A DNA stretch of 64,000 nt from Candidatus Heimdallarchaeum aukensis (GTDB taxonomy: Archaea > Asgardarchaeota > Heimdallarchaeia > Heimdallarchaeales > Heimdallarchaeaceae). The translations under genes and the position numbers were made by a program. The notes under the pieces were generated by a model. It was given only the letters and a program-made list of their open reading frames with translations, was not told where the DNA came from and made no database searches. Below are positions 1,542 to 51,700 of this stretch, piece by piece. The stretch covers positions 512,001 through 576,000 of the forward strand of contig CP084166.1 of assembly GCA_021513695.1 (NCBI GenBank), read 5' to 3'. How positions within the stretch are numbered: the first letter of the stretch is position 1; every line of letters begins with the position of its first letter.

Positions 1542-1932
1542 TTTAACTTTTGTAAGTTATTTATGCAATTTTCATTGTTTACTTACACAAACAAGTTGAT
1601 ATTAACAAAAGATAAGCAATTATATTCTCTGTTAAAGAGGACTGGAATACGTAGCGAATATATGGAGCTACCTAAATCAAGAGAAATAGCCAATAAAATT
1701 AAAATAACATACAATCAGTTTTCATATCTTGCTCGAGAATTGTTAGTATTATCTCCTTATTTAATAATAGAAGTAGATAATAAATCAATAGTACTAACAA
1801 TGAATTGGTTTGGACATGAAAAAGAAAAAATGGTATAGAGGAGTAAAACGCTACAACAAAAATTGATGGTAAAGTTAGACATTTGTGTATTAAATGAAAT
1901 AAATATACTTATACAATATGAGCTATTGCGAT

Positions 1933-2301: not shown

Positions 2302-2404
2302 AAGCTAAATTATTACTTAAAATATAAAAACATTTTTTCTTTTTTTCTTTAATTATTCTTAAAAATTTTTATTTTGAATTTCAAATTATTTTTTCAATTT
2401 GAAT

Positions 2405-3415: not shown

Positions 3416-3861
3416 TTTGAATTAAATTTATCAATTCCTTATTGTCAAGAAAATCATTCTTAATGGAAAAAAATCTAAACAATTTTCATAGTTTGTTTCT
3501 CCAGCAATTATATCCTCTTTTAAAGGTTAGTAAAATAAAAAAAGCAATATCGCTTTCTGCACTTTAAAAAGTTTTATTCCACTCCTTATTTTCGAAGAAT
3601 TCAGTCATAATATTCTTAATTTATTCAGTTCTTGTTAAATAAAAAAAACAATAAAAATAGAATCACATCATTTCTTGAAGTTACAACTAACTTTTGGCGC
3701 ATAATAATTATAGATTAAAATACAAAAAGTTTGCTCAGAATTTGGGACTTTGAATGTTAAAATCATTATTCACTCTAGTTCGATTAGACTTTTGTAAAAA
3801 AAACATACAATAATAAAAAAAAATTTATTTTGATTTGAGAAAAATCCAATTCTCGTCTCAA

Positions 3862-5361
3862 TTATATATTTCTCGTTTGCTCAAGTTTACTTCTTTGTTT
3901 CCACAAATTAAGTATTCTTCGCTGTTTTTCTGATATTGTTTCAGTTTTTACTCTTTTTATTGCTCCTATCTTTTCATAAAAAGCATATAGTGCTGCCACT
4001 TTTATTTCCTCATTTTCTTCTATTTTTTCTTTGATTGAAGCTTTTTCTATAAAGTCTGTTGAAACTATTCTTTCTTGGAATTCTTTTGTTTCAAGTATAG
4101 TTTTATGGAAATCTATGTTGGTTGTAATCCCACTAATTGTTAATTCTTTAAAAGCTAACCTTGCTCTTTCTATTGCGTCGTTTCTTGTTTTTCCCCATAC
4201 AATTAGTTTTCCTAAAAGAGAGTCATATTCATTTGACACATTGTAAGATGAAAAAACAAAAGTATCAAATCTTACATGATATATACTTGGAGCTATTAAT
4301 TGTTCAATTTTTCCTGATTTAGGTAAGAAGGTTTTTGGGTCTTCAGCATTTATTCTAAATTCAATTGCACTTCCATTTATTTTTATTTCATCTTGAACAT
4401 AACTTAATTTTAATCCTCCTGCTACTCTGATTTGTTCAACTACAAGATCTATTCCAGTAACCATTTCTGTTACAGGGTGTTCTACTTGAATCCTTGGATT
4501 AACTTCATTGAAATAAATTTGTCCATCTTTGTAAAGAAATTCAGCTGTTCCAGCATTAACATATCCTAGCTCTTTAGCCATCTTACAGACTTTTTCTCCA
4601 AGTTCATTTCTTTCTTGTTCTGTCAAAAATGAAGGCGCTTCTTCTATTAGTTTCTGATGAGAACGCTGAATGCTACATTCTCTATCTCCTAAGTGGATTA
4701 CATTACCATAACTATCTCCAATGAACTGTATCTCTATGTGTCTTGGAGATTCGATGTATTTCTCTATGAAAACAGACTTATTACCAAAAAAGTTCTCTGC
4801 TACAGATTGTGCTCCTAAAAGAGAGATTTCTAAAGTTTCGGGAGAGTTGACTATTTCCATTCCTTTTCCTCCCCCTCCAAAAGCAGCTTTAATAATTATA
4901 GGATAACCTATTTTTTCTGCTACTGTCTTTGCTTCTTCCAGTGTTTCTACATATCCTTTTGAACCTGGAACAACAGGTATTCCTACTTTACTTGCTATGC
5001 TTCTTGCTTTAACTTTGTCTCCTAGAAGGTCTATTACCTCTGGAGAAGGACCAATGAAAACAATCTTGCTTTTTATTACTTTTCTTGCAAATTCTGAGTT
5101 TTCAGAGAGAAAACCATAACCTGGATGTATAGCATCACATTTAGCTTTTTTGGCTATTTTTATTATTTTATCAATGTTAAGATAAGTTTCATTAACTGAA
5201 CCAGAACCAATACAATAAGCTTCATCTGCTAGTTTAACGTGTAATGACTGAGAATCGACTACGGTAAAGATAGCTACAGTTTTGATATTCATAAGTTTAC
5301 AAGCACGAATGATTCTAACAGCTATCTCTCCTCTATTTGCAATAAGTATCTTCTTAAGCAT
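3862..5361 (-). CDS. accC: Biotin carboxylase / pyruvate carboxylase subunit A (ATP-grasp)
   Basis: MLKKILIANRGEIAVRIIRAC, HPGYGFLSEN and the glycine-rich AAFGGGGKGM loop are seen. The likely start is the Met of MLKKIL (5361), not the upstream ORF-track Met. Confidence 0.85.
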   Translation of the reverse strand: MLKKILIANRGEIAVRIIRACKLMNIKTVAIFTVVDSQSLHVKLADEAYCIGSGSVNETYLNIDKIIKIAKKAKCDAIHPGYGFLSENSEFARKVIKSKIVFIGPSPEVIDLLGDKVKARSIASKVGIPVVPGSKGYVETLEEAKTVAEKIGYPIIIKAAFGGGGKGMEIVNSPETLEISLLGAQSVAENFFGNKSVFIEKYIESPRHIEIQFIGDSYGNVIHLGDRECSIQRSHQKLIEEAPSFLTEQERNELGEKVCKMAKELGYVNAGTAEFLYKDGQIYFNEVNPRIQVEHPVTEMVTGIDLVVEQIRVAGGLKLSYVQDEIKINGSAIEFRINAEDPKTFLPKSGKIEQLIAPSIYHVRFDTFVFSSYNVSNEYDSLLGKLIVWGKTRNDAIERARLAFKELTISGITTNIDFHKTILETKEFQERIVSTDFIEKASIKEKIEENEEIKVAALYAFYEKIGAIKRVKTETISEKQRRILNLWKQRSKLEQTRNI

Positions 5362-5625
5362 GAAAAGTGAATATGCTACACCTTTATTTAAATGAGTTGT
5401 TGTTTTATGAGTAAAAAATATTATAAAAAAATACAATTTCAATTTATTTGAAATTAATTCAACAGAGAAATTCTTACTTGTTACATAGGTTTCTAAATGA
5501 TCTTTAATCTTAATTATAATAACAATAGAAACAATCTAAAGAGAACACTTCCTAAATTAGTAAAGTCAGTAGACAAAAATATTAATAATTAGCAACTAAT
5601 TATCCAATTTAGTTATATTTCCCAA

Positions 5626-6590
5626 GTGTTTGACTTGAATAAAGAGGTTCTATACAATTTTTTTCATTCTCGAATCTTCAGTATCATTCAAGCTTTCTTT
5701 ATTACAATTCTGTGGTCATCTTCTTGGATACTAATAAAAGAAGGACTAGAAGATATTCCACCTATATTCTTTGCGGGAATTAGATATACTATTTCTTCAT
5801 TTATTTTAATCATTTTAGTATTTATTTTCTATAATAAAGAACAAACAAATGTAAAGATTTCCAAAAAATTATGAGGAAAACTAATTATTTATGGATTTAC
5901 TTTTTATACCATCACTCAAGGAGCTCAATTTATTGGAATATATTTTCTTCCAACTATTACAGTAAGCATGGTTTATAGTTTCACTCCTATAATTGTAGTT
6001 CTATTTTCTTACTTGATTTTAAAAGAGAAATCAAGTTTAATTCAGTTACTAATAGTTTTAGCTTCTATTGTTGGAGTAGTTCTCTACTTTAATCCCTTTT
6101 ACCAACAAGAAAGAACAGACTTTTTTACAATTGGTATTATTATAGTTATTTTTGGTGTAATAGCAAACGCCTTAGCAACAATAATTGGTCGAGACATTAA
6201 TAGTTCAAAGCAAATTCCTCCTCTTCTTGTGACATCAATTAGTAAGACTATAGGTTCGATTATTTTACTTATAGTAGCATTAATAATTGAGAATTTGCCC
6301 AAAATATCACTTAAATCTCTATTAATTATTCTTTGGTTAAGTATTGTAAACACAGCATTTGCTTTTACATTATGGAACAAAGTGATGCAAAAGCTAAAAG
6401 CAGTTGAGTTAATAATGATTAACAACTCTATGCTTGCTCAATTGCAATTTTAGCAGTAATATTTCTAGGAGAACGTCATCTAATTATAGAATGGATTGGA
6501 TTAACAATAGTTGGTTTATGCTCTATTTTTATCCAAATATTTAGAAATAATGGGACAAAAGAAGTAATTACAAATAAAAATGAAAATTAA
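5626..6590 (+). pseudogene. EamA/DMT-family transporter with in-frame TGA and frameshift
   Basis: Two EamA-like halves sit in one frame and are interrupted by a single in-frame TGA at 5872..5874 (KKL*GKLIIYGF). A -1 frameshift near 6430-6440 is followed by CSIAILAVIFLGERHLIIEWIGLTIVG in frame 3, ending at TAA 6588..6590. Confidence 0.5.
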
Positions 6591-6611
6591 AAAAGAAAAA
6601 CTAGAGCTTTT

Positions 6612-7997
6612 TTAATTCTGTGAAGAGATGTTTATACCCTTTGTTTTAATATAAGGAGTTTCTAGATAGCCATTAACTTTTTTGGTTGTTTTACTTAAAG
6701 ACACAATATTTTTCAGTACATCGAAAACATTACCTGCGATAGTCACATTAGTTAAGGGGGTTGTGATCTCACCATTTTTTATAAGTTGAGCACCTTTAGC
6801 TACTCCAGAGAATATACCATTCTCAGATCTTTGAGAGCCAGCAAAGTATTCAAAGACTATACCTTCTTTTATATCTTCTATCATTTCATCGTATTTTGTG
6901 TCTCCTGGTTTAATTACTGGTACATTTGGAAAGATATTATTTGGAGGATTCATAAAACTGCTATTTATAAATCCACGATAAGAATTTCCTGTTGATTGTG
7001 TGTTTGCTTTGTTTGCTGTCTTTATATCAAACAAATGTGTCATCAATACTCCATCTTTAATTATTTCTAGTTCTTTAACTGGTGTTCCTTCGTCATCAAA
7101 AGGTCTAGCGGTAGAGGATTTTCCATCTAATGAATTATCTATAAACGAGAAGCCATCTATCGCTACTTTTTCTCCTATACTATCTTTCCAAAGTGATTGA
7201 TTATGTTGTGTTCTTTCTGCTGATATAGCCATTGCAATAACAATGAATATTGGGCTAAGGACAGCATCAGGTTTGAAAACAACTATGTCTGAATCTATAC
7301 CTTTTAATTTTTCAACATTGACATTTCTAATGGCTCTTTCTACTAATTCTTTACCAAATTGGTAGAAATCAACTTCTTTTGGATCTTTCACACTAAATGA
7401 ATCCGATACAAAAGAACCTACTTTCTCTCCTTCTCTTGCAATTGCAAGAAATGATCCATCAAGGCTATTTCTGATATAGTTTCCTTCTACACCAAGAGAG
7501 TTTGCTATTCCCACATATTCTTCAGAAAGGATGATTCGACTAAGGTCTGTTTTAACGCTTATTGGTGCTTCTTCAAAGGGTAATAGTATCTGTTTAGCAC
7601 TGTCTATTAGTTCTTCAACCGTAAAAGTAGATAATTGTTTTGAAAAAAGTCCTTCGATTGTTGAATAGGAACTGGGAGGAGCAAGAGCTATTCCTTCTTT
7701 TTTAGGTTTGACTTTTAACATCACAATTGCTTGTTCAACTGTTTGCTCTATTGCTTTTTTATCTGCTTTATTAGTATAACTAAATCCTTCTACAGAATCT
7801 AGTAAAACTCTTATTCCAAAACCTAATTCTTGCACTTCTTTCTCATTAGCTATTTCTTTTCCAGAACAAGTAACTTCTAGTTTCTTGTTATCAGAGAAAA
7901 ATACTTCAGCGTCTTTAACTCCTTTCTTTTCAGCATACTCAATAGCATATTGAGCAAGATAATAAGCTTCATCTCTATTGATATTTGATTCACTCAT
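6612..7997 (-). CDS. pmbA: PmbA/TldE-family protein (peptidase U62 modulator)
   Basis: TldD/PmbA-family similarity with no HExxxH motif. It is adjacent to tldD in tandem with a 0-nt gap. Confidence 0.7.
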   Translation of the reverse strand: MSESNINRDEAYYLAQYAIEYAEKKGVKDAEVFFSDNKKLEVTCSGKEIANEKEVQELGFGIRVLLDSVEGFSYTNKADKKAIEQTVEQAIVMLKVKPKKEGIALAPPSSYSTIEGLFSKQLSTFTVEELIDSAKQILLPFEEAPISVKTDLSRIILSEEYVGIANSLGVEGNYIRNSLDGSFLAIAREGEKVGSFVSDSFSVKDPKEVDFYQFGKELVERAIRNVNVEKLKGIDSDIVVFKPDAVLSPIFIVIAMAISAERTQHNQSLWKDSIGEKVAIDGFSFIDNSLDGKSSTARPFDDEGTPVKELEIIKDGVLMTHLFDIKTANKANTQSTGNSYRGFINSSFMNPPNNIFPNVPVIKPGDTKYDEMIEDIKEGIVFEYFAGSQRSENGIFSGVAKGAQLIKNGEITTPLTNVTIAGNVFDVLKNIVSLSKTTKKVNGYLETPYIKTKGINISSQN

Positions 7998-18557: not shown

Positions 18558-19320
18558 GGTAGTGTCTAGTTTTCTTCCGACAAAAATATTTGTGGGGACT
18601 CTAATAGTAAGATATGAAAACACAAAAACTATCTACTCTTTTTAAGAGATGCAGAGTCCCCAAAAAGATAATAATAAAAGCGATTTATGAATATATTGGT
18701 TCAAAGAATGGTTTGAGGACAGTAGCATGGAAGAATGGTTTAACGCATCAAACATTATGGTATTGGGTAAAGAAGTTCAGGCTCTTTAGGGAAAGTTTAC
18801 ATAGAGTTGTAGCAGAAAGAGGGGGAATACCAGAGATTATAGTAGTTGATGAAACAGAGATTAAGACCTCTCAAGGCTCAATATATCTGTGGTTCGCGTT
18901 AGATCCTTACAACAAGACTTTACTGGGTTTTAGTATTACTAAAGGACGGAGTAATCTTGAATGTTTACTAACTTTCCGTTATTGGTTCAAATGTTGGGGT
19001 TTTAAGCCCCGTATTGTCGTTACAGATGCAGGGGTATGGTATCCTGTCTTACTTCGTCTCGGTATCAAAATCTCTGTTATCAAAGGTGGTTTACGCTCCT
19101 ATATTGAACGTTTTAATGCCACCCTTAAGAGTTATCATTGGTTTCATTCTATTCTTCACTGTACTTGTCCTATCCGTGCCGTCTATGGCTCTACTCATCT
19201 TTCTGGTTTCCTTACTCTCTTTATGCTCCATTTTAATTTCGTTCGTCCTCATCAGAGCTTGGGACATCCTCCCCTTAGTTCTTTTTTACCTAGGAGGTGG
19301 TATAAAAACTAGACACTACC
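18558..19320 (+). mobile_element. IS6-family-like insertion sequence, intact copy
   Basis: There are 16-bp perfect terminal inverted repeats GGTAGTGTCTAGTTTT (18558..18573) and AAAACTAGACACTACC (19305..19320). A 10-bp direct repeat ATTCGCTAGA flanks the element. It is 763 bp with a single transposase ORF. Confidence 0.7.
18614..19312 (+). CDS. IS6-family DDE transposase
   Basis: IVVDETEIKTSQGSIYLWFALD (compare IS6 vDEtyvkv..YLyrAiD), VVTDAGVWYP and FVRPHQSLG are seen. The ~230-aa size is typical of IS6. Confidence 0.7.
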   Translation: MKTQKLSTLFKRCRVPKKIIIKAIYEYIGSKNGLRTVAWKNGLTHQTLWYWVKKFRLFRESLHRVVAERGGIPEIIVVDETEIKTSQGSIYLWFALDPYNKTLLGFSITKGRSNLECLLTFRYWFKCWGFKPRIVVTDAGVWYPVLLRLGIKISVIKGGLRSYIERFNATLKSYHWFHSILHCTCPIRAVYGSTHLSGFLTLFMLHFNFVRPHQSLGHPPLSSFLPRRWYKN

Positions 19321-37321: not shown

Positions 37322-37639
37322 ACCATTTTTAATAGGATAAGTAAAATTACATCTTTTTTCCTTTTCCTGTTTTTTCCCATTCACTAAACTTATCTATTAG
37401 TTCGTCAATAGCATGTGTTATCTCTTCAGTGATTTTTTCAACAATAATTAATTTGTCATCTTCAATTCGAATAGACAAAATAGAACCGAGTTCAACCAAC
37501 CATAATTCAAGTTCATTAAGATCTTCAAAACCTAATTTTTCCTGTAAAGTAATTAAAGGTATTTTAGAATTATTAGATAGGACTTTGAATAATTTTTAGC
37601 TCTTTCTATTTCAATATCGCGAGAATCAAAATAGTTCAT
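37322..37639 (-). pseudogene. Duplicated 3' tail fragment of the 40618..43875 paralog (frameshifted)
   Basis: About 290 bp is near-identical to 40618..40906. It reads [22 protein letters not shown] and then, in another frame, ...GFEDLNELELWLVELGS.LSIRIEDDKLIIVEKITEEITHAIDELIDKFSEWEKTGKGKK. Its ATG overlaps the TGA of the upstream gene (ATGA). Confidence 0.5.
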
Positions 37640-40335
37640 TTTTTCTTCCCCTTTCCTTTACGTTCCCACTCACTGAACTGTTTGAGTAAATCATCAATAG
37701 CTGTAGTCATATCTTCAGAAACAAATTCGCCCTCAAATTGTAAGTCAAAGATTACTTCGTCTCTTTCGATTCTATTCGGTACATCCTTTGAATAGATGTA
37801 TAACCATAATTTCATAATCTCTATATCTTCAAAATCTAATAATGGAGAAAGCTTATTTAGACTTATTTTGTCGTAAACTAAACTAATTTTCTTAAGACGG
37901 TCAAGTATTTTATTATTAGTTTTTTTATCATTAATTATTTTTGTTAATTCAGACAATGTTCTATTATCTTCATCCAGTATATCTTTAACTATCGTTACTT
38001 TCTTTGTTGCAAAATCAAAAACTTCTGACCAATTATGTGCAAAAGATGGAAATAGTTTCTTAATTGTAGAAAAAGTATCACCTTTAAAAGAGATTATATA
38101 ATTTAAGAATGATAGCAATTTTTTATAACTAGCTATTATAGGCTTAAACTCTTGATCAGACCACTTTTCAATGAGTTTAGTTAACATTTCTTTTTTGAAA
38201 CTTTGTAAATTTGTAAAATTAATAAGATCAACTAAATAATTTATTTTACTGAGAACGGTATTATTTACGAAATAATCTAATTGATCATATGTTTTGTTTA
38301 ATTGTTCTCTTTCTATTTTTCTTAATTTTCTCTTATTTGAGCTGATAAAAAGGTAATCTTTAAGAAATAGTTTCAATTTTTCAAGATATTTTATAATCTC
38401 CTCAATTGAACTAATAAATAATAGTAAGGAAGAAGTGTTTATGAAAATCTTATCAAATTCTTCATTTAATTTAGTTTGCATATTTATTATCCCTGAGAAA
38501 TTTTCTCTTATCCTTAACCTTATTTTGTGTTCATAAACAAAAAAAAGAGGTAGGATAACAGATATAAGAAGTATAAGAGAAAAACATATTTTTTCAATTG
38601 GTTTAAGATAAATACTCTTTTTTAAAGGATTTTTACCATTTTCTATTTCCCAACCATCGAACAAACCGTCATCATCAGTATCAGAATCTAAAGGGTCAGT
38701 TCCAGCTAGATACTCTTCCAAATTAGTTAAACCATCTCCGTCCAGATCTTCTGATGAATCATATAACAAAGGGTTTAATGAATTACATAGTTCCCATCCA
38801 TCAGGTATGCCATCATCATCAGTATCGGGATCATTAGGGTCAGTTCCAGCTTGATATTCTTCTAAATTAGTTAAACTGTCTTTATCTTTGTCAACATAAG
38901 TGTCATTACTCAAAGGATTCAATAAAAATTCTACTTCCCAACTATCAGGTATGCCATCATCATCAGTATCAGAATCTAAAGGGTCAGTAGAATGCAAGGT
39001 CACTTCTTGAAAATCAGATAAGCCATCATCGTCAGTGTCTGAATCTAAAGGGTCAGTACTGTAAATAGTCACTTCTTGAAAATCAGAAAAGCCATCATCG
39101 TCAGTGTCTGAATCTAAAGGGTCAGTACTGTAAATAGTCACTTCATCTCCATCGTTCAAGCTATCATCGTCAGTGTCTGAATCTAAAGGGTCAGTACTGT
39201 AAATAGTCACTTCATCTCCATCGTTCAAGCTATCATCGTCAGTGTCAGAATCCAAAGGGTCAGTAGAATTCTGATACTCTTCTAAATTAGTTAATCCATC
39301 GCTATCTGGGTCTTCTGCAGAATCATCGATAGTAGTGTTTAAACCATTATTTTCTTCCCATTTGTCAAGCATATTATCTTGGTCTAAGTCTACATGCATG
39401 GGATAAGGATCAAAATTGTTAGCTGAACCATCTATAGGATATGGTCCTGTTCCACTCCAGTCATACCAATAGTTACCTGTTGTACCAGAATAAAATTTAT
39501 TGTATGTCCCATAATCACATGCTTGAGAAGAACCACCTAGATTATTTTTTATTAAGAAGTTTTTTACAAATATTTCATTTTTAGAGCTCTCATTTAGATA
39601 TATACCATAAGAATAACTATTTATTATAATATTGGAAGTAAAAGTATTTTTGTTAGAAACATCAAAGAGAATACCATAATTACTACTATTTACAACAGTA
39701 TTTGAAATAAAAGAATTGTTAGAACTACAAGAAAAAAATATGCCATCATAATAACTATTTGTTATAGTATTGGAAGTAAAAGTATTATTAAAACTAGAAT
39801 GAAGAGACATACCATAATTACTACATATCACAGAGTTGAAGGTAAAAGTATTATTGTTACTACAATAGAGGAAAATACCTACATTATAGCTATTTATAGT
39901 ATTATTAAATACAGTTATTGTTCCATCTGCAACAGAATAAATATAAATACCATAAAATGAACTTGAACCGCCCCCTTCAAGATAACAATCTCGAATAAGA
40001 ATATACTTTGTTGTCCCAGATATCTTTATACCATGAGATGTAGAGTCAGTTATACTATAGTTTTCAATGACATAAGGGTTATCTTTTGTCCCAGAACCAG
40101 GAAAAACAGTAAGATCATCATCAGACTCAATAAGAATAGGCGAATGAACTGTATAAACTTTTTTTACAGCTCTAGTTTCATTTGAATTTACACTAGACAT
40201 TGAATCTATTGTTATTTGATTAGATTGTAGAACCATATTTTCCTCTATTTGAGTCGAAAGGTAAACAAAGAAAACTGTAGTTGTTATTAATATTAGTACT
40301 AAACTTAATTGTATATAAGTTGCTATTCTTTTCAT
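37636..40335 (-). CDS. Receptor-like type-I membrane protein: right-handed beta-helix, thrombospondin-type-3-like Ca-binding repeats, TM, conserved cytoplasmic C-terminal module
   Basis: A signal anchor is followed by PbH1-like repeats (NNTFTSNTI..., NNSFISNTV...), ~10 DxDxDG/TSP3-like units ([15 protein letters not shown]) and a TM helix ([19 protein letters not shown]). The cytoplasmic helical region ends ...[21 protein letters not shown]. Confidence 0.65.
38974..39249 (-). repeat. In-frame 69-bp tandem repeat, 4 units (2 identical, plus diverged flanking units), encoding 23-aa TSP3-like repeats
   Basis: Units lie at 38974, 39043, 39112 and 39181. Units 3 and 4 differ by 1 nt. Each encodes [12 protein letters not shown][SG]L[NS]D[GF][DQ]EVTIY. 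Confidence 0.85.
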
Positions 40336-40617
40336 TTTTCAACCCTAGATACTCTAACTCTAAAGTAAATGCTTATTGAACATTTTCAAGATTTTAAATT
40401 TGAGTCACTTAATATTAAACAAAATACTAATTAACTTTTTCTACTAAACTTTGATTAATGTATAATCTGCACACATTAGGATGAAAGAAACTAAACTGTT
40501 TTTAGAGAAAAAATTCAAAATAAATGAACCACATTCAGTTATAACTAAAAAAATTCAGTGATTTTAATTAATATGTATGCTTCACAAAAACAACATGAGA
40601 TTTTCAACATTCTTTTT

Positions 40618-43600
40618 TCATTCTTTTTTACCTTTTCCTGTTTTTTCCCATTCACTAAATTTATCTATTAGTTCGTCAATAGCATGTGTTATCTCTTCAG
40701 TGATTTTTTCAACAATAATTAATTTGTCATCTTCAATTCGAATAGACAAAAAAGAGCCAAGCTCAACCAACCATAATTCAAGTTCATTAAGATCTTCAAA
40801 ACCTAATTTTTCTTGTAAAGTGAATAAAGGTATTTCAGAAGTAGTGGATAAAACCTTGAAGAATTCTTTAGCTCTTTCTATTTCAACATCTCGAGAATCA
40901 AAATAGTTTATTTTTTCTTCTATTTTTTCTTTTAATTCATTGTATTGTTCTATTCCATTGCTGGATAGCTCTCCTACTGTCTCTGTGTTCATAACCCTAC
41001 TATAATTTTCTTTCCAGTTAGCTAATTTTTCGTCAAACTCTTTAAAATATAACTCACTTTCTGTTATTTTTCCTTTTAGAGAATACACAAACAGATTATC
41101 TATTTCTTTTCTTAGCTCTTCTCCTTTTTTATCTAACAATATTAAAGGATAAAGATAAATAAGATCTCGAACTTCTTGTCTCTTATTTTCTATTTCTTGT
41201 AATTCCTCTAACAAGTCTTTTCTTTCTTCATTGGTTATTTGTTTAGAAAGAATTTCAAGTTTAGATTGAAAAAAATCACGAAAACCATCTGTTATCTCTA
41301 ATAACTTTTTTACTTTCTCGTAGTTAATATTAATGTTTAAGTCTTGTTGATTAATTATTTCTTTCTCTATTTCTAAAAATTCATCAAAGGTTTGTTTTTT
41401 GTGTATCTTAATTTGATTAATGTACGCATTTAATTCTTCTTTTGAAATTTGCTCATCAATATTTTTGATTTCATAGATCTTGGAAGAAAGCAAAGCATTT
41501 CGTATATCTATTTTTTCTATCTCTTTGGCATAGATTAAGTACTCATTACTTAATTCTTTGAATTCAAAAAAGACTTTAGCTATCCTTTTATTATAGTTAT
41601 CAAGATCAATTTTTTTATAATCGTTCTTTTGCACATAGCTATTGATCTGTTGCAAATCAGAGAGCAGTTGTTGCTTCTTTTCTAATATTTTATTCAACAA
41701 TAAGATATATTCATCTGTAATTTTTCTTTCTAATTCAGTCTTAATTTGTGATAACTTTTCTATAAAATCATTAATCTCCCTTTTCACTTTTTCAAATTCA
41801 ATAATATTTTTCTTTCCAATTATAACCTTAAATAAATTAAACTTTGAGCGATAAGAACCAATAATATTATCTAATTGTTTAGCACTATTAACCCATTCTT
41901 TAAAATTATCAGGTGAATATGATTGAAGAAGATATTCATCTATTTTTTCCTTAAATTTATTAAATTCCAAAAATTGTTTATTATATTCGTTCTTCAGTTG
42001 GATGATTTTTTCTCTCTGTTTTTTCTTAATTAATAAAATAGTTGTTGTTACGCTTCCTATTACCAAAAAACTCAATAGACAGGAAAGCACAATTTTAATT
42101 TTTTTTGCTCGAGGATTGCTTAATTTATTTAATGGATCACTTCCATAAATGATTATTTCATCATAATCATTAAATTTGTCATCATCTGTGTCATTTTTTG
42201 TTGGATCTGTGTGGTAAGCATATATTTCTTCATAATCAGATAAACCATCTCCATCAGTGTCAGAATCTATGGGATCAGTTAAGAAAACTATAACTTCTTG
42301 ATAATCAGTTAAACCGTCGCTATCTGAGTCTTTCTTATAAGGAAAAGAATGAAATATTTTAACTTCTTCATAATCACTTAATTTATCATCATCAAAATCC
42401 CCATCTCTTATACATCCTCCAAAAATAACTTCATCATAATCATTAAGACCATCACCATCAGTGTCATTGAAATTAGGATTAGCCATCCACTGATATTCTT
42501 CTAAATTTGATAAGCCATCTCCATCAGAATCGGCCTTGGAGTCATCTAAATTATAGACAATTTCCCAAGCATCTTCCATTCCATCAGAATCAGAATCATT
42601 CTCGACAGATGCAACTCGCCTAGGAAAGATATCTCCAATTTTATTTCCATAAATAGAATAAAAATTGGTAGTACCATCCCAATCTTCCCATAAATTGCCA
42701 ACTAGTAAAGTAGGAGAATACCAGTAAGTGTTAGTGCCATAATCTTCATTATTATCTTGAATCTTCAAAAAAGAATTATTGAAGACTATGTTATAATCTC
42801 CTCTTTCACCAATCCTTACTCCCCCTAAACCTGTTCCACAAAAAAGGTTATTATAAATCAAACTGTTACTTACTTCGAAACCATAACTAATAGCAAAATT
42901 AGTTGAATTATAGATATTGTTATTACTAATAACAACGTTATTACATCTTTCTAAATATAATCCATCTGATGTTGCTCCATTTATCAAATTATCAGAGATT
43001 ACAATTTCACTATTACCACTTGACCATAGGCATGAAGCCCAATCATTAGTTGTTTTTTCTAAATTATTGTAAAAGATTTTTATTTTTTTATTATCTCTAA
43101 CTCCAATGCTTCCTGCTCCATTAGTTATACATGTGTTTTTTATAATTGTAACATTTGAAGATTCAGAAACTAAAATACCAAAACCAGAGTTATTGGCAGA
43201 ATAATTATTTTTTATCAAGCTATCTCCAGATTGATGTACCAACACGCCATATTGATTATAAAGAAGAGTACAATTCTCAACTATTACACCACCTGCTCTA
43301 GTTTCAGAAGAAATCCCAACTTCATAACCTTGAATAAAACAATTCCTAATTATTACGAAAGAACTAACATAACGAATAACAATACCACAAGAATTTTCTA
43401 AATACTCAGTATCACCAGTTGAAACTTCATAGTTCTCAATTATATAAGGGTCTGCTTCAGTTCCTGAACCAGGAAACCCAAACTTTACAAAGTCTTCTTC
43501 ACTATTGATTTCTATCGGTGAATGAACAATATAACGTGTTTCTTTAGCATTGTTTCTTTCGGCAATTGCTTTTTGACAAGAACTACCATGGTTTATTTGT

Positions 43601-43875
43601 CTGTAGCTTGAAGTTAAATTATGCTTATCAATTGAGCGATAATTATCATATTCTTTTCCATTCTCTGTTTTATTGTTATTAAATTTAGAAGCCTTTTCAT
43701 CTACATAATTATCTATTAGGTGAAAAGTTGGAGTAAGAAAAAGAAAAATAACTAAAGAAACAATAATTCTTTTATAGTTTGGAAATATATTGTTTAATAT
43801 TTTCATTTCTAGAACAAGTATATACATTACAATAAAAAAATAAAAGTTTTTCTTCACTATTTCTTTTCTTTTCAT
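40618..43875 (-). CDS. Receptor-like type-I membrane protein paralog (beta-helix + TSP3-like repeats + TM + long coiled-coil cytoplasmic region + conserved C-terminal module)
   Basis: Same domain order as 37636..40335. The TM helix is IVLSCLLSFLVIGSVTTTILLI. The C-terminus is ...AIDELIDKFSEWEKTGKGKKE. The true start may be the internal Met of MKILNNIF (signal-like). Confidence 0.65.
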   Translation of the reverse strand: MKRKEIVKKNFYFFIVMYILVLEMKILNNIFPNYKRIIVSLVIFLFLTPTFHLIDNYVDEKASKFNNNKTENGKEYDNYRSIDKHNLTSSYRQINHGSSCQKAIAERNNAKETRYIVHSPIEINSEEDFVKFGFPGSGTEADPYIIENYEVSTGDTEYLENSCGIVIRYVSSFVIIRNCFIQGYEVGISSETRAGGVIVENCTLLYNQYGVLVHQSGDSLIKNNYSANNSGFGILVSESSNVTIIKNTCITNGAGSIGVRDNKKIKIFYNNLEKTTNDWASCLWSSGNSEIVISDNLINGATSDGLYLERCNNVVISNNNIYNSTNFAISYGFEVSNSLIYNNLFCGTGLGGVRIGERGDYNIVFNNSFLKIQDNNEDYGTNTYWYSPTLLVGNLWEDWDGTTNFYSIYGNKIGDIFPRRVASVENDSDSDGMEDAWEIVYNLDDSKADSDGDGLSNLEEYQWMANPNFNDTDGDGLNDYDEVIFGGCIRDGDFDDDKLSDYEEVKIFHSFPYKKDSDSDGLTDYQEVIVFLTDPIDSDTDGDGLSDYEEIYAYHTDPTKNDTDDDKFNDYDEIIIYGSDPLNKLSNPRAKKIKIVLSCLLSFLVIGSVTTTILLIKKKQREKIIQLKNEYNKQFLEFNKFKEKIDEYLLQSYSPDNFKEWVNSAKQLDNIIGSYRSKFNLFKVIIGKKNIIEFEKVKREINDFIEKLSQIKTELERKITDEYILLLNKILEKKQQLLSDLQQINSYVQKNDYKKIDLDNYNKRIAKVFFEFKELSNEYLIYAKEIEKIDIRNALLSSKIYEIKNIDEQISKEELNAYINQIKIHKKQTFDEFLEIEKEIINQQDLNININYEKVKKLLEITDGFRDFFQSKLEILSKQITNEERKDLLEELQEIENKRQEVRDLIYLYPLILLDKKGEELRKEIDNLFVYSLKGKITESELYFKEFDEKLANWKENYSRVMNTETVGELSSNGIEQYNELKEKIEEKINYFDSRDVEIERAKEFFKVLSTTSEIPLFTLQEKLGFEDLNELELWLVELGSFLSIRIEDDKLIIVEKITEEITHAIDELIDKFSEWEKTGKGKKE

Positions 43876-44044
43876 TATTTCATTTTAAAGTAGTTTATTT
43901 ATCAAGTTCAACTTGCATAAAAGAATACAAATAAAACTAATACGAAAAATCGATGAAAAACATAAGATTCACAGAATGGATAAAATAAGACAGAAAAAAA
44001 ATATAATATTTCATATTTTTTTCTAAAAACTAAAATTAGTGAAA

Positions 44045-46010
44045 TTACTTCTTTTTCCCCTTTCCTGTACGCTCCCACTCACTAAACTGTTTAAGCAGAT
44101 CATCTATAGCTTCAGTCATATCTTCTGCCACGAACTCACCCTCAAGTTGTATATCGAACATTACTTCTTCTCCTTCTATCTGATTTGGTAAATCTTTAGA
44201 ATAAGCATATAACCATAGTTTCAAGACCTCTTTGTCTTCAAAGTCTAACAAAGGAGAAAGCTTGGTTAAACTTATTTTATTATAAACAGAACTAACTTTC
44301 TTAAGTCTTTCAAGTCTCATATTATTATTCTCACTATCATTAAATATTTTAGCTAACTCACCTAATAATTGTTCATTTTGTTCTAATAGTTCTTGGACAA
44401 TAACCAATTTTTCAGTAGCTAAATCTTTAATATCAGACCAGAAAGAGTCAGAAGAAGCAAATTTAGTAAAAGCTTTATGATCAATAAAAGCTACAATGTA
44501 ATTTAGGGTTGATAATATCTCTTCATAGCTGATAATTAGAGGTTTGAACTCCTTATCAGACCAATTATAGACAATGTTAGTTAACATTTCTTTAGTGTAA
44601 TCAAACAAATTTTTATAATCAATAAATTCAATTAATGAAACTACTTTATCATGAAGAGAGGAGCTGATAAAAGAGGTTATTTTTTCAAAAATCTTGTTAA
44701 ATTGTTCTTGTTTATTAGTTTTTAATCTTTTGCTGTTAGAATGAACAAAAATTAACTTTTCAAGAAGATTACCTAACTTTTCAAAATAGTCTTTTATCTC
44801 CTCTGCAGAAGAAACGAAAGAAATTAATGAAGAAATTTCTGTAAAAGTTTCCTTATACTTTCCATCTAATTCAGATTGTAAATGAATTACTTTTTCAAAT
44901 TTTTCCTTTACTTTTATTCGCATTATTAATACATGAATGGAGAATGTTACAAGAATAACAAATATAGGAAGTATAGCAAAATAACCTATTTTTTCTACTT
45001 GAGACAAATAAATATTCTTTTTTACAGGATTTTTTCCATTTTCTACTTCCCAACCGTCAAGCATACCATCTCCATCAGTGTCATTGTCCAAGGGGTCAGT
45101 AGAATAGATATGAACTTCTTGACCATCAGTCAGTCCATCTCCGTCACTGTCACTGTCCAAGGGGTCGGTATTGTAAGTATTTATCTCTTCATAGTCATCA
45201 AGTCCATCGTCGTCTGTGTCATTATCTATGGGGTTAGTACCTATTTGATACTCTTCTAAATTGGTCAAACCATCATTATCAAAATCCTCTGTAGAGTCAT
45301 CAATATTTGTGTCCAAGCCATTATCTTCTTCCCATTTGACGGGTATATTATCCTGGTCTAGATCCACATACATAGGATAAGGATCAAAGTTATTAGCGGA
45401 ACCATCTATTGGATATACTCCTGTTCCATTCCAGTCATACCAATAGTTCCCTGTTGACCCAGAATAAAACTTATTGTTTGTTCCCTCATCATACGCTTGT
45501 GAAGAACCACCTAAATTATTTTTAATTATGATGTTTTCCATAAAACTATTATTAGAGTATAACGGAGTCTTATACCATAAGAATTACTATTAGCTATAGT
45601 TTTAGAGCTAAAAATATTGTAAGAACTATTAAGAATATATACACCAATATAGCTACTGTTTGCTATGGTGTTAGAGGTAAAAATGTTATAAAAACTATAG
45701 CCTAGTTATATATTGTAGATACCACCATTTGTTATAATATTATTTATAAAAATATTATTAGAACTAGAACCGAGACTAATACAACACCAATCATTATTTA
45801 TAATTGTATTAAAAATAAAGTTGTTATTAGAACTATAACCTATTCGTATACCGTAATAACTAACAGTAATATTATTGAAAAAGAATGTGTTATTAGAGCT
45901 ATATTGAAGATTTATACCACTGGTAATTATATTTGTTATTTTATTAGAAATAAATGTATTATTAAAACTAGTTTCAATCCAAATACCATAATTCTTATTA
46001 TTTCTTTAGT
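44045..46010 (-). pseudogene. Third receptor-like paralog, 5' beta-helix region decayed
   Basis: The ORF 44045..45541 encodes only the TSP3 + TM + cytoplasmic part (..[21 protein letters not shown]). The stretch 45541..~46010 is recognisably homologous at the DNA level to the beta-helix region of 37636..40335 but is riddled with stops. Confidence 0.5.
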
Positions 46011-46272: not shown

Positions 46273-47061
46273 TCAAAGGTTGTTTAATAATTTGTTTAGA
46301 GTTAATCTAATTTCTGAACGAGTTTTATTATCAGGAATAAGAAAAGAGACTTTTACTCCATTACTTTTATTATAAAACATATCTGCTACTTCACGTAAAT
46401 TATTCTTAATTTCAATTAATTCCTCAGGAATTGGACTACTTTTAGGCAATTGTTCTACTTTTGCTTGATAAATGTCAAATAATACCGAATACAATATTTC
46501 GGTAGTAAAATAATATTTTTCATAATGAGAGTTTTTCCAATCCTCTTCTTTTAGATTTTTTTCTTTTATATGTTTGATTCCTTTATATTTTTTCCCACTC
46601 GCTAGCTCTTCAAGATAATAATGAGATTTTGCATGTTTTAAATACTTACCCTTGATAGGTGATTCTTTTTTAAATTCAGTAACATCAAGATGAAACGAGT
46701 ACGTAACTTTTTTCTCTGTATCATACTTTATAGGCCTTTCTAATAAAGAATAAAATATTACAAAAATTAATTTCGCTAATAATTTTGTATCACAGTCATT
46801 CTCATTTATTTCCTGTTCTATTCGCTCAAAAACTCCAAATCTTTCTAGTAGATAGATTTTATCTTCATTATTGAACAAAAATGTAACTAATTCTAAAATT
46901 ATATACTCTTTGTCATCACTATCAGAAGAAAAAGTGAAAAGATCTTTAAACTCATCAAAAACCTTTAGACGAAAGAGATAATCAAGATCACTGTTCTTAG
47001 CTGCGTATTTAACTGTTTCAAAGTAAAACATATTTATTATCACAAAACCAACAATGTTCAC
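46273..47061 (-). pseudogene. 3' (C-terminal) half of a ~514-aa gene split by IS481-like insertion
   Basis: Translation continues in frame from the upstream fragment across the 16-bp duplicated target (..FVGFVI|INMFYFETVKY..). Confidence 0.6.
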
Positions 47062-48065
47062 TCAATAGACCTGGGTTACACTTTTGGGTACTAGAGAAAC
47101 ATAGGGGTGATTCATAAATTTTTCTCCAGGAGTAAGGAGGTTAAGAGACTGGTGAGGACGGCTAAAATTGTAGTATGAGCGGTAGAAGGAGAGGTCGGAG
47201 TTACAGTAGGTTAGTCCTAGTCTTTTCATCTCACGGATAATGGTTCCATGTAGTCTTTCTACTTTTCCACATGTTTCGGGGTGAAAAACTCTAGATCTTA
47301 TGTGCTTTATTCCCTCTGTTTGACACCAACGGGAGAAGGTACTTGTTCCCCCTCTAACGGAGTAGAATAGTGCTCCATTGTCTGTGAGAATAGACTCGGG
47401 GTATCCATATTTTTCTACTGCTTCTTCTAACAGACTTATTATCTGCTCTTTTTTCGGTGCGAAAGGGTGGAGTTTAGCTCCCAGGCAGAATCGTGAGTGG
47501 TCGTCTATTAGAGTTATGAGATAAAGGTGTTGTCCTTGTTCTTCTACCCAGAAAGGTCCTTTCACATCTATCTGCCAGAGTTCGTTAGGGGATGAGCGCT
47601 CAAAACTCTTGTATTGAGTAATGTTTCTCTTTTTTCTATTACTCCACAGAGGAAGACCTAACTCCCCTATTACTTTAACTACTGTGTTTCGCGATAGTGC
47701 TCTTCCTTCTTTCTTCAACAGATAAACTATCTTCTCCACGTTCATTCCTTGCTTTACTCTTAACTCCCTTATCCTCTCTCTTAACTCCTCATTCACTTTC
47801 CTGTGTATAGTTTTAGGTCTAGATGATCTATCCTTCCACCATTCTCCTTCAGGGTTCTCCTTAAACCTTTTCAACCACTTATATACAAACTTCCTACTCA
47901 CCATATACCTGTGAGCTACCTCTTTTATCTTCTCTCCTTCCAAAGCTTTTTTAACCACAATCTTTCTTAGTCTCTCTAGGTTACGTTTGGGTTTGTTCAT
48001 AATTCGTCACTTACCCTCGTAACCCACTTTCTATTTATTTGTTACCAACGTGGGTAGAGTAAACA
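47055..48065 (-). mobile_element. IS481-family-like insertion sequence flanked by 16-bp direct repeat ATCACAAAACCAACAA
   Basis: The direct repeat lies at 47039..47054 and 48066..48081. The ends begin TGTTCACTC / TGTTTACTC (inverted). A single rve-type transposase lies inside. Confidence 0.65.
47062..48000 (-). CDS. IS481-family DDE (rve integrase-core) transposase
   Basis: N-terminal HTH; WQIDVKGPF, LITLIDDHSRF, ILTDNGALF, HPETCGKVERLH and YNFSRPHQSL are seen. The protein is 312 aa. Confidence 0.75.
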   Translation of the reverse strand: MNKPKRNLERLRKIVVKKALEGEKIKEVAHRYMVSRKFVYKWLKRFKENPEGEWWKDRSSRPKTIHRKVNEELRERIRELRVKQGMNVEKIVYLLKKEGRALSRNTVVKVIGELGLPLWSNRKKRNITQYKSFERSSPNELWQIDVKGPFWVEEQGQHLYLITLIDDHSRFCLGAKLHPFAPKKEQIISLLEEAVEKYGYPESILTDNGALFYSVRGGTSTFSRWCQTEGIKHIRSRVFHPETCGKVERLHGTIIREMKRLGLTYCNSDLSFYRSYYNFSRPHQSLNLLTPGEKFMNHPYVSLVPKSVTQVY

Positions 48066-48826
48066 ATCACAAAACCAACAAAGAAAGAAATAATAAATAT
48101 TAAAAAAATTGTTTCACCATCTGCAAAATTGGTGATAAAAGCATAACTGATACAAAATATCAAACTAAGAATATTTATTCCAATTTTGTAGTCATCTCCT
48201 AAAATCTGTAAATCTAAAGGTTTGTTTGCTACTTCCAAGTCTGAAACCTTGAAAAAACTTTGTAACAAAATAATGAAATATAACACATATACACCATTAT
48301 AAAACCAAGCAAACTTTGTTATTTTACTGGAACTTGCTCCTATTACAGCAGTAATATATTTTGGATCAAGAAATGATAAGAAAAAAGGAATTGCTATAAA
48401 AAATAACGAAAGGGGAAAATAATAGATTAAGATTAAAGCTCTATTATAAAGCGATATTTTTGATTTAACAATGCTATACGAAAGAAGATAGTTTTTTATT
48501 TTCTTTAGATATTCTCCGTCAATATTATTTTCTCTTTGCTCTCTTGTTTCAATATCCTTCTTAATCTCATTAATAGTTTTTTTAGTTGATACCAAGTATT
48601 TTACAATTCTTATTAAGAAAACAATTAAAAGTAAGGTCACAACCAAATTGATAATAAAAAATGTAGTAATTAAAAATGTAGAAAAACTCTTTTGAGACGC
48701 GAAAATGGAATACTTTATGCTGAAGAAAGAATTGACTAAAAAAGCAGTAAAAAGAATAACTACGATATTAGTGACTATATATGGTTTTATCTTTAAATAG
48801 TACCTTTCTAACAAGGTACTATACAT
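48035..48826 (-). pseudogene. 5' (N-terminal, polytopic membrane) half of the gene split by the IS481-like element
   Basis: The last 9 codons (VYSTHVGNK*) are encoded by the IS end. The codons before them match the target duplication. Confidence 0.6.
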
Positions 48827-48875: not shown

Positions 48876-49651
48876 GGTAGTGTCTAGTTTTCTTCCGACA
48901 AAAATATTTGTGGGGACTCTAATAGTACGATATGAACATTCAAAAACTATCTACTCTTTTTAAGAGATGCAGAGTCCCCAAAAAGATAATAATAAAAGCT
49001 ATTTATGAATATATTGGTTCAAAGAATGGTTTGAGGACATAGCATTGAAGAATGGTTTAACACACCAAACATTATGGTATTGGGTAAAGAAGTTCAGGCT
49101 CTTTAGGGAAAGTTTACATAGAATTGTAGCAGAGAGAGGGGAATACCTGAGATTATAGTAGTAGATGAAACAGAGATTAAGACCTCTCAAGGCTCAATGT
49201 ATCTGTGGTTCGCATTAGATCCTTCCTTACAACAAGACTTTACTGGGTTTTAGTATTACTAAGGGACGGAGTAATCTTGAATGTTTACTAACTTTCCGTT
49301 ATTGGTTCTGGTTCAAATGTTGGTATGGGGTTTTAAGCCTCGTATTGTCGTTACAGATGCAGGGGTATGGTATCCTGTCTTACTTCGTCTCGGTATCAAA
49401 ATCTCCGTTATCAAAGGTGGTTTACGCTCCTATATTGAACTTTTTAATGCCACCCTTAAGAGTTATCGTTGGTTTCATTCTATTCTCCACTGCACTTGTC
49501 CTATCCGTGCTGTCTATGGCTCTACTCATCTTTCTGGTTTCCTTACTCTCTTTATGTTCTATTATAATTTTATTCGTCCTCATCAGAGTTTAGGACATCC
49601 TCCCCTTAGTTCCTTTTTACCTAGGAGGCGGTATAAAAACTAGACACTACC
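48876..49651 (+). mobile_element. IS6-family-like insertion sequence, decayed copy 2
   Basis: The same 16-bp TIRs lie at 48876..48891 and 49636..49651. A 9-bp direct repeat TTAAAAATC flanks the copy. The transposase is broken by several indels (only a 120-aa ORF remains at 49281..49643). Confidence 0.65.
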
Positions 49652-49712
49652 TTAAAAATCAACATTAATGCTTGTAAATAGAGAAAAAAAGAAAAAATAT
49701 GTAAGTCGTCAT

Positions 49713-50723
49713 TTATTGTTTCTTTCTTGCCATTAATTGTGTAGAAATACAAATAAAGAAAATAAGTAATATGTATATGTTTAGAAAAGAAGTTTTCGCA
49801 GTATCATCTCCATAATTGTTTATTCCTAAATAGTTTTCATTCTTCCATCCAGCTAAAGTCGCCCAAAACCACCAAGCAGAATAAGCTTTAAGATTAGCAT
49901 TTAAAGGTTGGGAATGAGCTGAAGCACAATTATACCATTCTATTCCTTCTTCATGTTTATTTTGCCATTCAATAGCCCAATTACCTGAATGTGTTCCATT
50001 ATTCCAACTACAATCATCACTTACATTTTTGTCTCCATAATAGTTTCCATCGGGATCATAAGATTCTATATCTGCAAAGTCATATAGTACTTTATTATTC
50101 TCTTTGCAGAATTCTCTTATTTGCTCGTTCCTTTGATGTAAGTTTCCTTCTAAACCTGTTCCATCAGTGTGACCAGTCATATAGACAAAAATCACGTCAG
50201 GAAACTCTTGTTCGAGAATACTCATAGGTGTTAGATAGTGGTTAACTAGTTCTTCTTCCGACATCCAGCTCAGTTGACCACACCAACTCCACATTATGAC
50301 ATTCACATCTTTATTGTTCATATCTTGTAAAAAGGCTCTTGTAGCATTAGACCATTGAGAATAACCTGCATCAGCTGCTTGACTTGGATCAGGAGCATAG
50401 CTTGCTATAGTATTATCTTCTAGAAAAGAGGAATTGTAAGAAAAGAGTCCTTGAGTTCCTCCATTTGCTTCCTTAAAGGAAGGCAAATCAGACATACCTG
50501 TAATAATTTGCGAACCGTGACTGGTGTGCTGATAAGCTATGTGCAATTTATTCTTTGCTTCAATAATTGCTTCATCTGGAATTTGGTTCAATCTAACTAG
50601 ATTAGCTATTGAATGATCAGCTATTATTTGTGCAGTGTTTGTACTGCCAGAAACAAAATTTCCAGTTCTAACAATAAATGGAAGCAAATTAATAAAGCAT
50701 GTCCAAAAATTCTTTTTCACCAA
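49713..50723 (-). CDS. Secreted hypothetical protein with C-terminal TM anchor; 5' end overlapped by IS5-like copy 2
   Basis: The C-terminus reads ILLIFFICISTQLMARKKQ. The first ~9 codons (MVKKNFWTC) are supplied by the IS terminal repeat. Confidence 0.4.
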   Translation of the reverse strand: MVKKNFWTCFINLLPFIVRTGNFVSGSTNTAQIIADHSIANLVRLNQIPDEAIIEAKNKLHIAYQHTSHGSQIITGMSDLPSFKEANGGTQGLFSYNSSFLEDNTIASYAPDPSQAADAGYSQWSNATRAFLQDMNNKDVNVIMWSWCGQLSWMSEEELVNHYLTPMSILEQEFPDVIFVYMTGHTDGTGLEGNLHQRNEQIREFCKENNKVLYDFADIESYDPDGNYYGDKNVSDDCSWNNGTHSGNWAIEWQNKHEEGIEWYNCASAHSQPLNANLKAYSAWWFWATLAGWKNENYLGINNYGDDTAKTSFLNIYILLIFFICISTQLMARKKQ

Positions 50724-51700
50724 CTATACAGTCCGAAGGAGTAAAAGGTAGTTGTAACAGAGGAGAGAACTATAAAGAGTAGAAAGAATGGTGGAGGGTA
50801 AGTGATCAAGGATTGGGGGAAGAGAGAGTTTGAGGAGACCAAAGACGTGTTCAATACTACTACGATACTCGGGGTGATGATTATGGCGATAGAGACCAGG
50901 GTAGAGACGATGAGCTTGAACTATTGATCCGAGAGGAGGAGAGGGATAACGAGCATTACTTTTTGGGGGAATAACAGGGAAAAAGGAATGTTGTCTAAGA
51001 AGACCGACGATATTTTCTGTCCAGTTGGCACAGTCTCCATAAAATCTCAAGAGCGGTCTCAAGAGTGCAGAAGGAAGTTTCTGCCATAGTAAACCGAAGA
51101 CTTTACTATCGTGAGTGTTACTAGCAGAATGAGCTAAAGAGATTATAGCTCTGGAGGGTAAACCAACTATAAGGTGTATCTTCCAGAAAAGTTTAGTTTG
51201 GAGGTTTTCTTTAGTCCTCCTCTTGCCCACTTGAGAAAACGCCAAACAGAAGCTTGACGGATTTTAAACCCTGAACTATCCACCGCCATAGCTTTCAACC
51301 CTTTTTTTTTCACTATTTCCCCACCTAAGTTTATTATCCACCGCTCTAAAATTTTACTTTCTGTCGCTCTCCACACTGCATGAAAAGTAGATTTGGAAGG
51401 AATCTTCTTCATCCACCCCTCTTCTATCAAAAAATCGCATAGAGACAACTTTTCCTCTAACTTCCTCCAAGCAATTCCTTCTATTCTAGCAATGATCGCT
51501 AAAGCCAGTATCACCCACCTTTCTGCTATTCTTTTTCTCCCTCTCTTACTTTCTCTCGGTTCCTCTTTCACCAGTTTCTTAAGGAAAGGTTCATTAATGA
51601 TTATGAATTCTCTTGCTTTGTGGAGGTCTATGATCTGAAAGAAACTCATACTTCCGACATAAACCCCCACATTAATAAAAATTAATTTTTGGACATGCTT
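50695..51700 (-). mobile_element. IS5-family-like insertion sequence, copy 2 (apparently intact, orfA/orfB)
   Basis: There are 17-bp terminal inverted repeats AAGCATGTCCAAAAATT (50695..50711) and AATTTTTGGACATGCTT (51684..51700). OrfA is 51167..51670 (-). OrfB is 50724..51245 (-) in the -1 frame, overlapping by 79 nt. Confidence 0.65.
50724..51670 (-). CDS. IS5-family transposase OrfA + OrfB (requires -1 frameshift for fusion)
   Basis: AVDSSGF lies in OrfA. YGDCANW and ..EHVFGLLK.. lie in OrfB. The frameshift position is conserved in copy 1. Confidence 0.6.

Follow-up and report, generated by a model that had tools for sequence, protein, structure and literature searches.

Evidence for a recent insertion of an IS481-family element into a membrane protein gene of Candidatus Heimdallarchaeum aukensis

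The interrupted gene and its empty counterpart

Within a 64-kb stretch of the genome of the Asgard archaeon Candidatus Heimdallarchaeum aukensis (analysed as a whole and referred to here as the window), a minus-strand membrane protein gene is divided by a 1011-bp insertion sequence (IS) of the IS481 family that lies between two copies of a 16-bp sequence. The features assigned at this locus are listed below; L036 is a metagenome contig carrying the uninterrupted gene, and PR6 is Ca. Heimdallarchaeum endolithica PR6.

46273..47038, minus strand: 3′ part of the disrupted gene, codons 255-508 plus stop, hydrophilic half (collinear with L036, 99.3%)
47039..47054, no strand: target-site duplication copy 1, ATCACAAAACCAACAA (16-mer single in the empty-site allele L036)
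47055..48065, minus strand: complete IS481-family insertion sequence, 1011 bp (ends aligned to PR6 copies; G+C contrast)
47055..47080, minus strand: right inverted repeat, including the transposase stop TGA at 47062-47064 (sequence and open reading frames)
47062..48000, minus strand: transposase gene, 312 amino acids, N-terminal helix-turn-helix (HTH) and rve DDE core (NCBIfam NF033577; Pfam)
48040..48065, minus strand: left inverted repeat, upstream of the transposase, TGTTTACTCTACCCACGTTGGTAACA (18/26 match to the other end)
48066..48081, no strand: target-site duplication copy 2 (exact repeat; 16-mer single in L036)
48066..48826, minus strand: 5′ part of the disrupted gene, codons 1-254 including one duplication copy, multi-pass membrane half

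The window contains exactly two copies of the 16-mer ATCACAAAACCAACAA, at 47039-47054 and 48066-48081; they are identical, as a preliminary description of this DNA had claimed. The match between them does not continue beyond the 16 bp in either direction, and two or more matches to the 16-mer were found in 0 of 100 dinucleotide-preserving shuffles, even with two mismatches tolerated. The copies enclose 1011 bp (47055-48065), the length given earlier, starting with TGTTCACTC and finishing with the complement of TGTTTACTC to give TGT...ACA ends. These inverted ends, previously summarized as TGTT[CT]ACTC, agree at 8 of 9 positions and extend into an imperfect inverted repeat matching at 18 of 26. 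The element is present as a single copy in the window and has a G+C content of ~38-45%, against ~25% in its flanks. It aligns base for base at both ends (positions 1 and 1011) with ~26 full-length copies in PR6, so that its termini are defined independently of the direct repeat, and relatives at 54-63% amino acid identity retain the terminal blocks TGTTxACTC and GGTxACA. The observation of an IS inserted between 16-bp duplications is confirmed.

Both flanking open reading frames (ORFs) run into the element. The upstream ORF (48826..48035, minus strand) ends with ...FIISFFVGFVI followed by the IS-encoded residues VYSTHVGNK and a stop, and the downstream ORF (47061..46273, minus strand) starts with MNIVGFVIINMFYF... 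inside the IS end and resumes in register, exactly as first described. Removing 47055..48081 in silico restored one uninterrupted ORF, as had been predicted, although its length is 508 amino acids (1527 nt including the stop) and not ~514. In GenBank the halves are listed as separate hypothetical proteins (UJG41278.1, K9W45_02170, and UJG41276.1, K9W45_02160), which would suit an arrangement of two separate genes with the IS between them. We give this arrangement virtually no credence, because the upstream ORF ends in IS-encoded residues, the downstream ORF begins in the IS end, excision yields a single frame, and a contiguous 508-amino-acid protein exists on L036, which refutes it.

That contiguous protein also answers the proposal, made in the preliminary description, to search for the uninterrupted allele. 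The intact allele, P0124, was located in the 90% cluster of the downstream half by exact cluster look-up; it is 508 amino acids long and is encoded on contig Ga0366834_1061137 of JGI metagenome 3300033149 (L036). P0124 differs from the in silico restoration at two residues, Y9D and I102L. Positions 1-924 of L036 align to window positions 48989-48066 with 99.6% identity, and positions 909-6690 align to 47054-41289 with 99.3% identity; the overlap between the two blocks (~6.7 kb of flanks) is precisely the 16-mer, found once in L036. This alignment identifies L036 as the empty site. Exact-pattern scans of metagenome DNA for the empty site and the occupied junction gave no match, the scanned collection evidently being without the relevant contigs.

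The occupied allele was recovered from a second source. L037, from the Logan assembly of run SRR15988954, begins 29 nt inside the IS end and continues ...CTATTGAGTGAACA, TTGTTGGTTTTGTGAT, AATAAATATG... into the downstream half (i.e. IS end, duplication and gene), indicating that the occupied junction exists in an assembly separate from the finished genome. This junction bears on the idea that a multicopy IS was misplaced during assembly into a gene that is really intact. The genome is a metagenome-assembled genome (MAG), the IS family is multicopy, and contigs of other assemblies do break at IS ends (L036 starts in another IS and L037 stops 29 nt into this one). However, a misjoin would not yield a precise 16-bp duplication abutting exact conserved termini, and the independent Logan assembly shows the same IS-end/duplication/gene junction; we consider an artefact highly improbable. 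Identical duplication copies, an intact transposase and two gene halves that are still open indicate that the insertion is recent.

The restored protein has hydropathy peaks at residues 17-35, 57-75, 131-149, 217-235 and 240-258, giving about five or six hydrophobic segments in its first half and a hydrophilic second half, and the insertion point falls inside the last hydrophobic segment (residues 240-258). Insertion after codon 254 leaves the N-terminal half with nine IS-encoded residues followed by a stop. Pfam detected no domain over threshold in the restored protein (Tetraspanin was sub-threshold, 15 bits versus a cut-off of 32), and a single-sequence AlphaFold2 model had a mean predicted local distance difference test score of 47 and a predicted template modelling score of 0.31, too poor to use. 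A word-indexed search of 5.8 billion proteins returned zero matches, and HMMER, run exhaustively against 1.84 billion representatives, returned just the two split halves. On these searches, the target protein is a lineage-specific ORFan, seen only in this population.

The split leaves the membrane half truncated and the soluble half without its own start codon, so that the protein is most probably inactivated. At the right end of the IS, directly after the transposase TGA, lies a GTG in frame with the downstream half, from which GenBank starts the 262-amino-acid UJG41276.1. The possibility that an IS-borne GTG is a conserved device for expressing downstream genes was rejected, as GTA occupies this position in the main PR6 subfamily and the chance of an in-frame placement is 1 in 3. 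Since the GTG is not conserved in that subfamily, its placement is treated as a coincidence.

Family assignment and proposed mechanism of insertion

A single ORF of 312 amino acids occupies 939 of the 1011 bp of the element. Its product is identical to GenBank UJG41277.1, annotated as 'IS481 family transposase' in the 3.08-Mb genome of Ca. H. aukensis. Pfam matches to rve (4.6e-18), HTH_32, HTH_28 and rve_3 all fall in this one chain. The NCBIfam IS481 profile NF033577 scored 227 bits, narrowly above its curated cut-off of 224, with 279 of 284 profile positions aligned, whereas the IS3 profile NF033516 (108 bits, cut-off 160) and the ISNCY_2 profile NF033594 for the IS1202 group (75.5 bits, cut-off 250) both remained below theirs; the initial claim of an IS481-type rve transposase is borne out. 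The element also has one ORF rather than the two frameshift-fused ORFs of IS3. Elements of the IS481 family are ~1-1.3 kb long with inverted repeats starting 5′-TGT, and the window element agrees in size (1011 bp) and in its TGTTTACTC... / TGTTCACTC... ends. Asp145 (WQID), Asp207 (LTDNG) and Glu248 (GKVER), i.e. D145, D207 and E248, form the putative catalytic triad, matching published IS481 alignment columns at the level of motifs.

The transposase was compared by blastp with 30 catalytic cores, the ISfinder/IS481EU subset taken from the data file of PMC10045372. The best core in this panel was ISSav5 (102 bits, 35.5% identity), followed by ISMav2 (96 bits; identities in the range of 34-36%). 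An identity of ~35% to the nearest panel member indicates that the Heimdallarchaeial clade is a deep branch. The element belongs to an IS481 sub-lineage with heterogeneous duplication lengths, in which a 16-bp relative is already known; it is a new, deep-branching IS481 member in an Asgard archaeon and ordinary in kind.

The narrow margin over the IS481 cut-off, together with the secondary matches to IS3 (108 bits) and ISNCY_2 (75.5 bits), raises the alternative that the element is better placed elsewhere than in IS481, whether as an IS3-like element lacking the frameshift or within the IS1202/ISNCY group, where a 15-17-bp duplication class is also known (PMC10045372). Both alternative profiles are far under their cut-offs (160 and 250), the element consists of one 312-amino-acid ORF in 1011 bp, and its core is most similar to the IS481 members ISSav5 and ISMav2, so we regard a classification outside IS481 as very unlikely.

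If the enzyme acts as other members of its family do, the DDE transposase (HTH plus rve; D145/D207/E248) would bind the TGT...ACA inverted-repeat ends and join the 3′-OH ends of the element to two target phosphates staggered by 16 bp, and gap repair by the host would then produce the 16-bp direct repeat. Transposition would probably follow a copy-out-paste-in route, by analogy with IS3/IS481 relatives and given the identical multicopy sets in the sister genome. A 16-bp stagger approximates 5-6 bp plus one helical turn and, following a published conjecture, may place the scissile phosphates on the same DNA face as in members with 6-bp duplications (PMC10045372).

We conclude with high confidence that an apparently functional IS481-family IS inserted recently into the coding region of a 508-amino-acid membrane protein gene in Ca. 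H. aukensis. Several points count against this conclusion or its parts. The IS481 profile cut-off is exceeded by just 3 bits, and identity over the catalytic core to the nearest ISfinder panel member is ~35%. An in-frame GTG is supplied by the IS end, so that the C-terminal half is conceivably still made, and loss of function is inferred. Finally, the target motif described below is based on 24 sites, mostly from one genome.

Duplication length and target sites across the clade

A scan of one genome per species identified 35 related loci (L001-L035), ~27 of them in PR6 and the others in Heimdallarchaeota MAGs. Transposase families with up to 27 copies have been reported in these genomes (Wu et al, 2022, PMC8813620); that paper contains the terms 'IS481' and 'target site' 0 times each and is silent on IS family, termini, duplication length and targets. 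The PR6 copies form sets of ~100% identity (e.g. L008-L012; L002-L004 with L023; L013-L016 with L024-L025), which indicates several recent bursts and a family that was recently active. The subfamily of the window element, with TGTTTACTC ends, is common to both Heimdallarchaeum species at 95-96% nucleotide identity.

Among the 24 copies flanked by direct repeats, the duplication measured 16 bp in 18, 17 bp in four, 15 bp in one and 14 bp in one, and all 24 duplicated sequences differ from one another. Duplications of 16 bp were also found at L022, L027 and L034, whose transposases are 54-63% identical to that of the window. Comparison across the 24 copies, distant relatives from other Heimdallarchaeota MAGs included, shows that the 16 ± 1-bp stagger is a fixed property of the Heimdallarchaeial clade and not a one-off. 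Five copies lack a duplication, and no swapped flanks, a sign of IS-mediated rearrangement, were found among these five. In the Heimdallarchaeota MAG CSMAG_1088, the right flank of L019 and the left flank of L020 have the 16-mer CTACCTCTAGTATTCT in common, on opposite sides; both contigs end in the same IS, and they are evidently one copy and locus split by the assembler, with a further 16-bp duplication.

The diversity of the repeats decides a separate question. A length of 16 bp is long for a DDE-transposase duplication, and the 16-mer could instead be the attachment site of a site-specific integrating element. A different repeat at each of the 24 flanked copies refutes such an origin, and the enzyme belongs to the DDE/rve transposases rather than to the tyrosine or serine recombinases; we therefore dismiss an attachment site almost entirely and retain the target-site duplication.

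The published record places the 16-bp value within the family. IS481 members in ISfinder have duplications of 2-15 bp, mostly 6 bp, and 'not a few' of ~15 bp (Kojima & Bao, 2023, PMC10045372). The same study gives 15 bp for the archaeal ISMac4 and ISA0963-1, 15/16 bp for the eukaryotic IS481EU and a 15-17-bp class for the IS1202 group, describes duplication-length classes spaced by about one helical turn, and labels ISSav5 with 16 bp in its Data S2 alignment. The window duplication thus belongs to the long ~15-bp class and, given ISSav5, lies within the family range, its length being descriptive and not family-defining. The earlier statement that 16 bp is at the long end for IS481 calls for a refinement: the value is no outlier, being the mode of this clade and shared with ISSav5.

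Target sites were analysed by reconstructing 24 empty sites, oriented as the IS. They are T-rich at positions -9 to -1 before the duplication and A-rich at +1 to +7 after it. A target score was defined as the T count in the 7 nt before the duplication plus the A count in the 7 nt after it (maximum 14). The mean score was 9.04/14 at the 24 true sites versus 4.81 ± 1.96 for positions drawn at random from those loci, and the observed mean was reached by 0 of 100,000 resampled means. Shifting the position by ±5 to 60 bp gave scores of 3.7-6.4, and the inverse pattern was depleted at the true site (2.58). When the sites were folded into 48 half-sites, A was present at -10 in 34/48, T at -5 and at -4 in 39/48 each, and G/C at the first duplicated base in 30/48; positions -12, -10, -5, -4, -3, -2 and 0 were significant after Bonferroni correction. 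These statistics show that the preferred site is two-fold symmetric, A-N4-TTTTT-N / 16 bp / N-AAAAA-N4-T. Since the symmetric motif is locked to the duplication boundaries, it points to specificity of the transpososome; selection after insertion is not expected to generate such a pattern. We found no published description of a symmetric target preference for long-duplication IS481 members.

No open frame of at least 100 codons spans the insertion point at 18 of the 24 sites, and another three are placed right where a long open stretch begins. The window site is central to an open stretch of 513 codons, with 760 nt on one side and 763 nt on the other. Insertion sites are mostly intergenic, and the mid-gene insertion in the window is unusual. 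The window site has a target score of 10/14, its T-tract being formed by the phenylalanine (Phe)- and isoleucine (Ile)-rich codons of the last hydrophobic segment, which suggests that T-rich Phe/Ile codons of a transmembrane helix may mimic the preferred site.

For the broader proposal, that the Heimdallarchaeial IS481 clade combines a tightly fixed 16 ± 1-bp stagger with a two-fold symmetric extended target of ~36 bp (A-N4-T5/16 bp/A5-N4-T), we find the case evenly balanced. If this is a true insertion specificity, the clade would lend itself, as a simple natural system, to tests of the 'one extra helical turn' model, which was proposed for the 5/15/25-bp duplication classes of IS481, IS1202 and IS481EU (PMC10045372), and the target preference could explain how ~27 copies per genome are carried while genes are mostly spared.

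Neighbourhood, significance and known relatives

The surroundings of the disrupted gene hold further IS remnants. A second, decayed IS of ~776 bp is present at 48877..49652, ~50 bp before the disrupted gene's start codon, with another copy at 18559..19320; the two copies are 93.8% identical. Its terminal inverted repeats, (A)GGTAGTGTCTAGTTTT, are perfect and accompanied by a direct repeat of 9 bp, TTAAAAATC; its DDE transposase fragments (IIVVDETEIK, VVTDAGVWYP and FYYNFIRPHQSLG) are frameshifted and give a weak rve_3 match. The decayed IS is also found at the start of the empty-site contig L036, and is thus older than the IS481 insertion. A 173-amino-acid ORF at 50724..51245 (minus strand), with adjacent ORFs at 49713..50723 and 51167..51670, has a partial DDE_Tnp_1 match (IS4/IS5-type) and represents a third transposase remnant within 4 kb, indicating a locus rich in IS debris. 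A scan for sigma-70 promoters and terminators was disregarded, as it is not meaningful for an archaeon of ~25% G+C.

Directly downstream of the disrupted gene (37636..45541, minus strand) are three consecutive genes of 899, 1085 and 498 amino acids with bacterial-type TSP3 calcium-binding repeats, two of which also have NosD/right-handed beta-helix domains. They resemble a surface-protein cluster, and internal paralogy among them is visible when L036 is compared with the window by blast. In PR6, at ~625 kb, an IS copy lacking a duplication (L002:2461-4423) coincides exactly with the axis of a large inverted duplication with arms of 476 nt that are 83% complementary and further arms outside, covering diverging TSP3-repeat genes. 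Possible explanations are an inverted duplication associated with the IS and an IS insertion midway between two paralogues arranged head to head.

The locus is of value chiefly as a clean case of transposition in an Asgard archaeon, documented in full and with both its occupied and its empty allele recovered, and it shows an IS family recently active in Heimdallarchaeum populations. It also corrects the annotation: K9W45_02160 and K9W45_02170 are halves of one IS-disrupted 508-amino-acid gene. The transposase is already recorded publicly as IS481, but the split gene is unrecognised there. The additions to IS481 biology are modest, namely a 16-bp stagger kept down to 54% protein identity, a symmetric T-tract/A-tract target and an intergenic bias. 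They bear on the open question of how discrete duplication-length classes arise and leave the understanding of such elements unchanged.

Among known systems, IS481 itself (Bordetella pertussis) resembles the window IS in its family profile, single ORF, size of ~1 kb and TGT ends, but has 6-bp duplications and a core similarity of only 66 bits. The ISTde1-type subgroup of the IS1202 group (ISNCY) likewise has an rve-type DDE enzyme and 15-17-bp duplications, although the ISNCY_2 profile gives the window transposase 75.5 bits against a cut-off of 250. IS1202 elements and transposases are also larger. The IS481EU/Banshee elements of parabasalids share TGT...ACA termini and 15/16-bp duplications (PMC10045372); they are, however, 2-6 kb long, and single families mix 4-, 15- and 24-bp duplications, in contrast to the 16 ± 1 bp of this clade. 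Especially close kinship between the Asgard elements and IS481EU was considered but found no support, the best match, IS481EU-8_TV (54.7 bits), ranking below ten prokaryotic IS481 panel members.

Closer likenesses are found among prokaryotic elements. ISA0963-1 and ISMac4 share archaeal hosts and the long duplication class (15 bp; PMC10045372), but at 76 and 44 bits are more distant than ISSav5. ISSav5 (IS481, Streptomyces) shares the WQxD / DDHSR / LTDNG / GKxE(R/Q)FH motifs and the 16-bp duplication; ISMav2 shares the same transposase motifs and has an 11-bp duplication. Both differ from the window IS in being bacterial and only ~35% identical, a likeness assessed on the catalytic cores. The PR6 copies differ in species and in insertion sites, and their main subfamily is only ~88% identical, with TGTATACTC ends. 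Closer to the window element are copies such as L001 and L032 of Ca. H. endolithica PR6 (CP084167.1). L001 is likewise 1011 bp long, 95% identical in nucleotide and 97% in protein sequence, and has the same termini (TGTTTACTCTACCCA... / ...GAGTGAACA) with a 15-bp duplication; by the usual ISfinder convention, we take it to be an isoform of the same IS as the window element.

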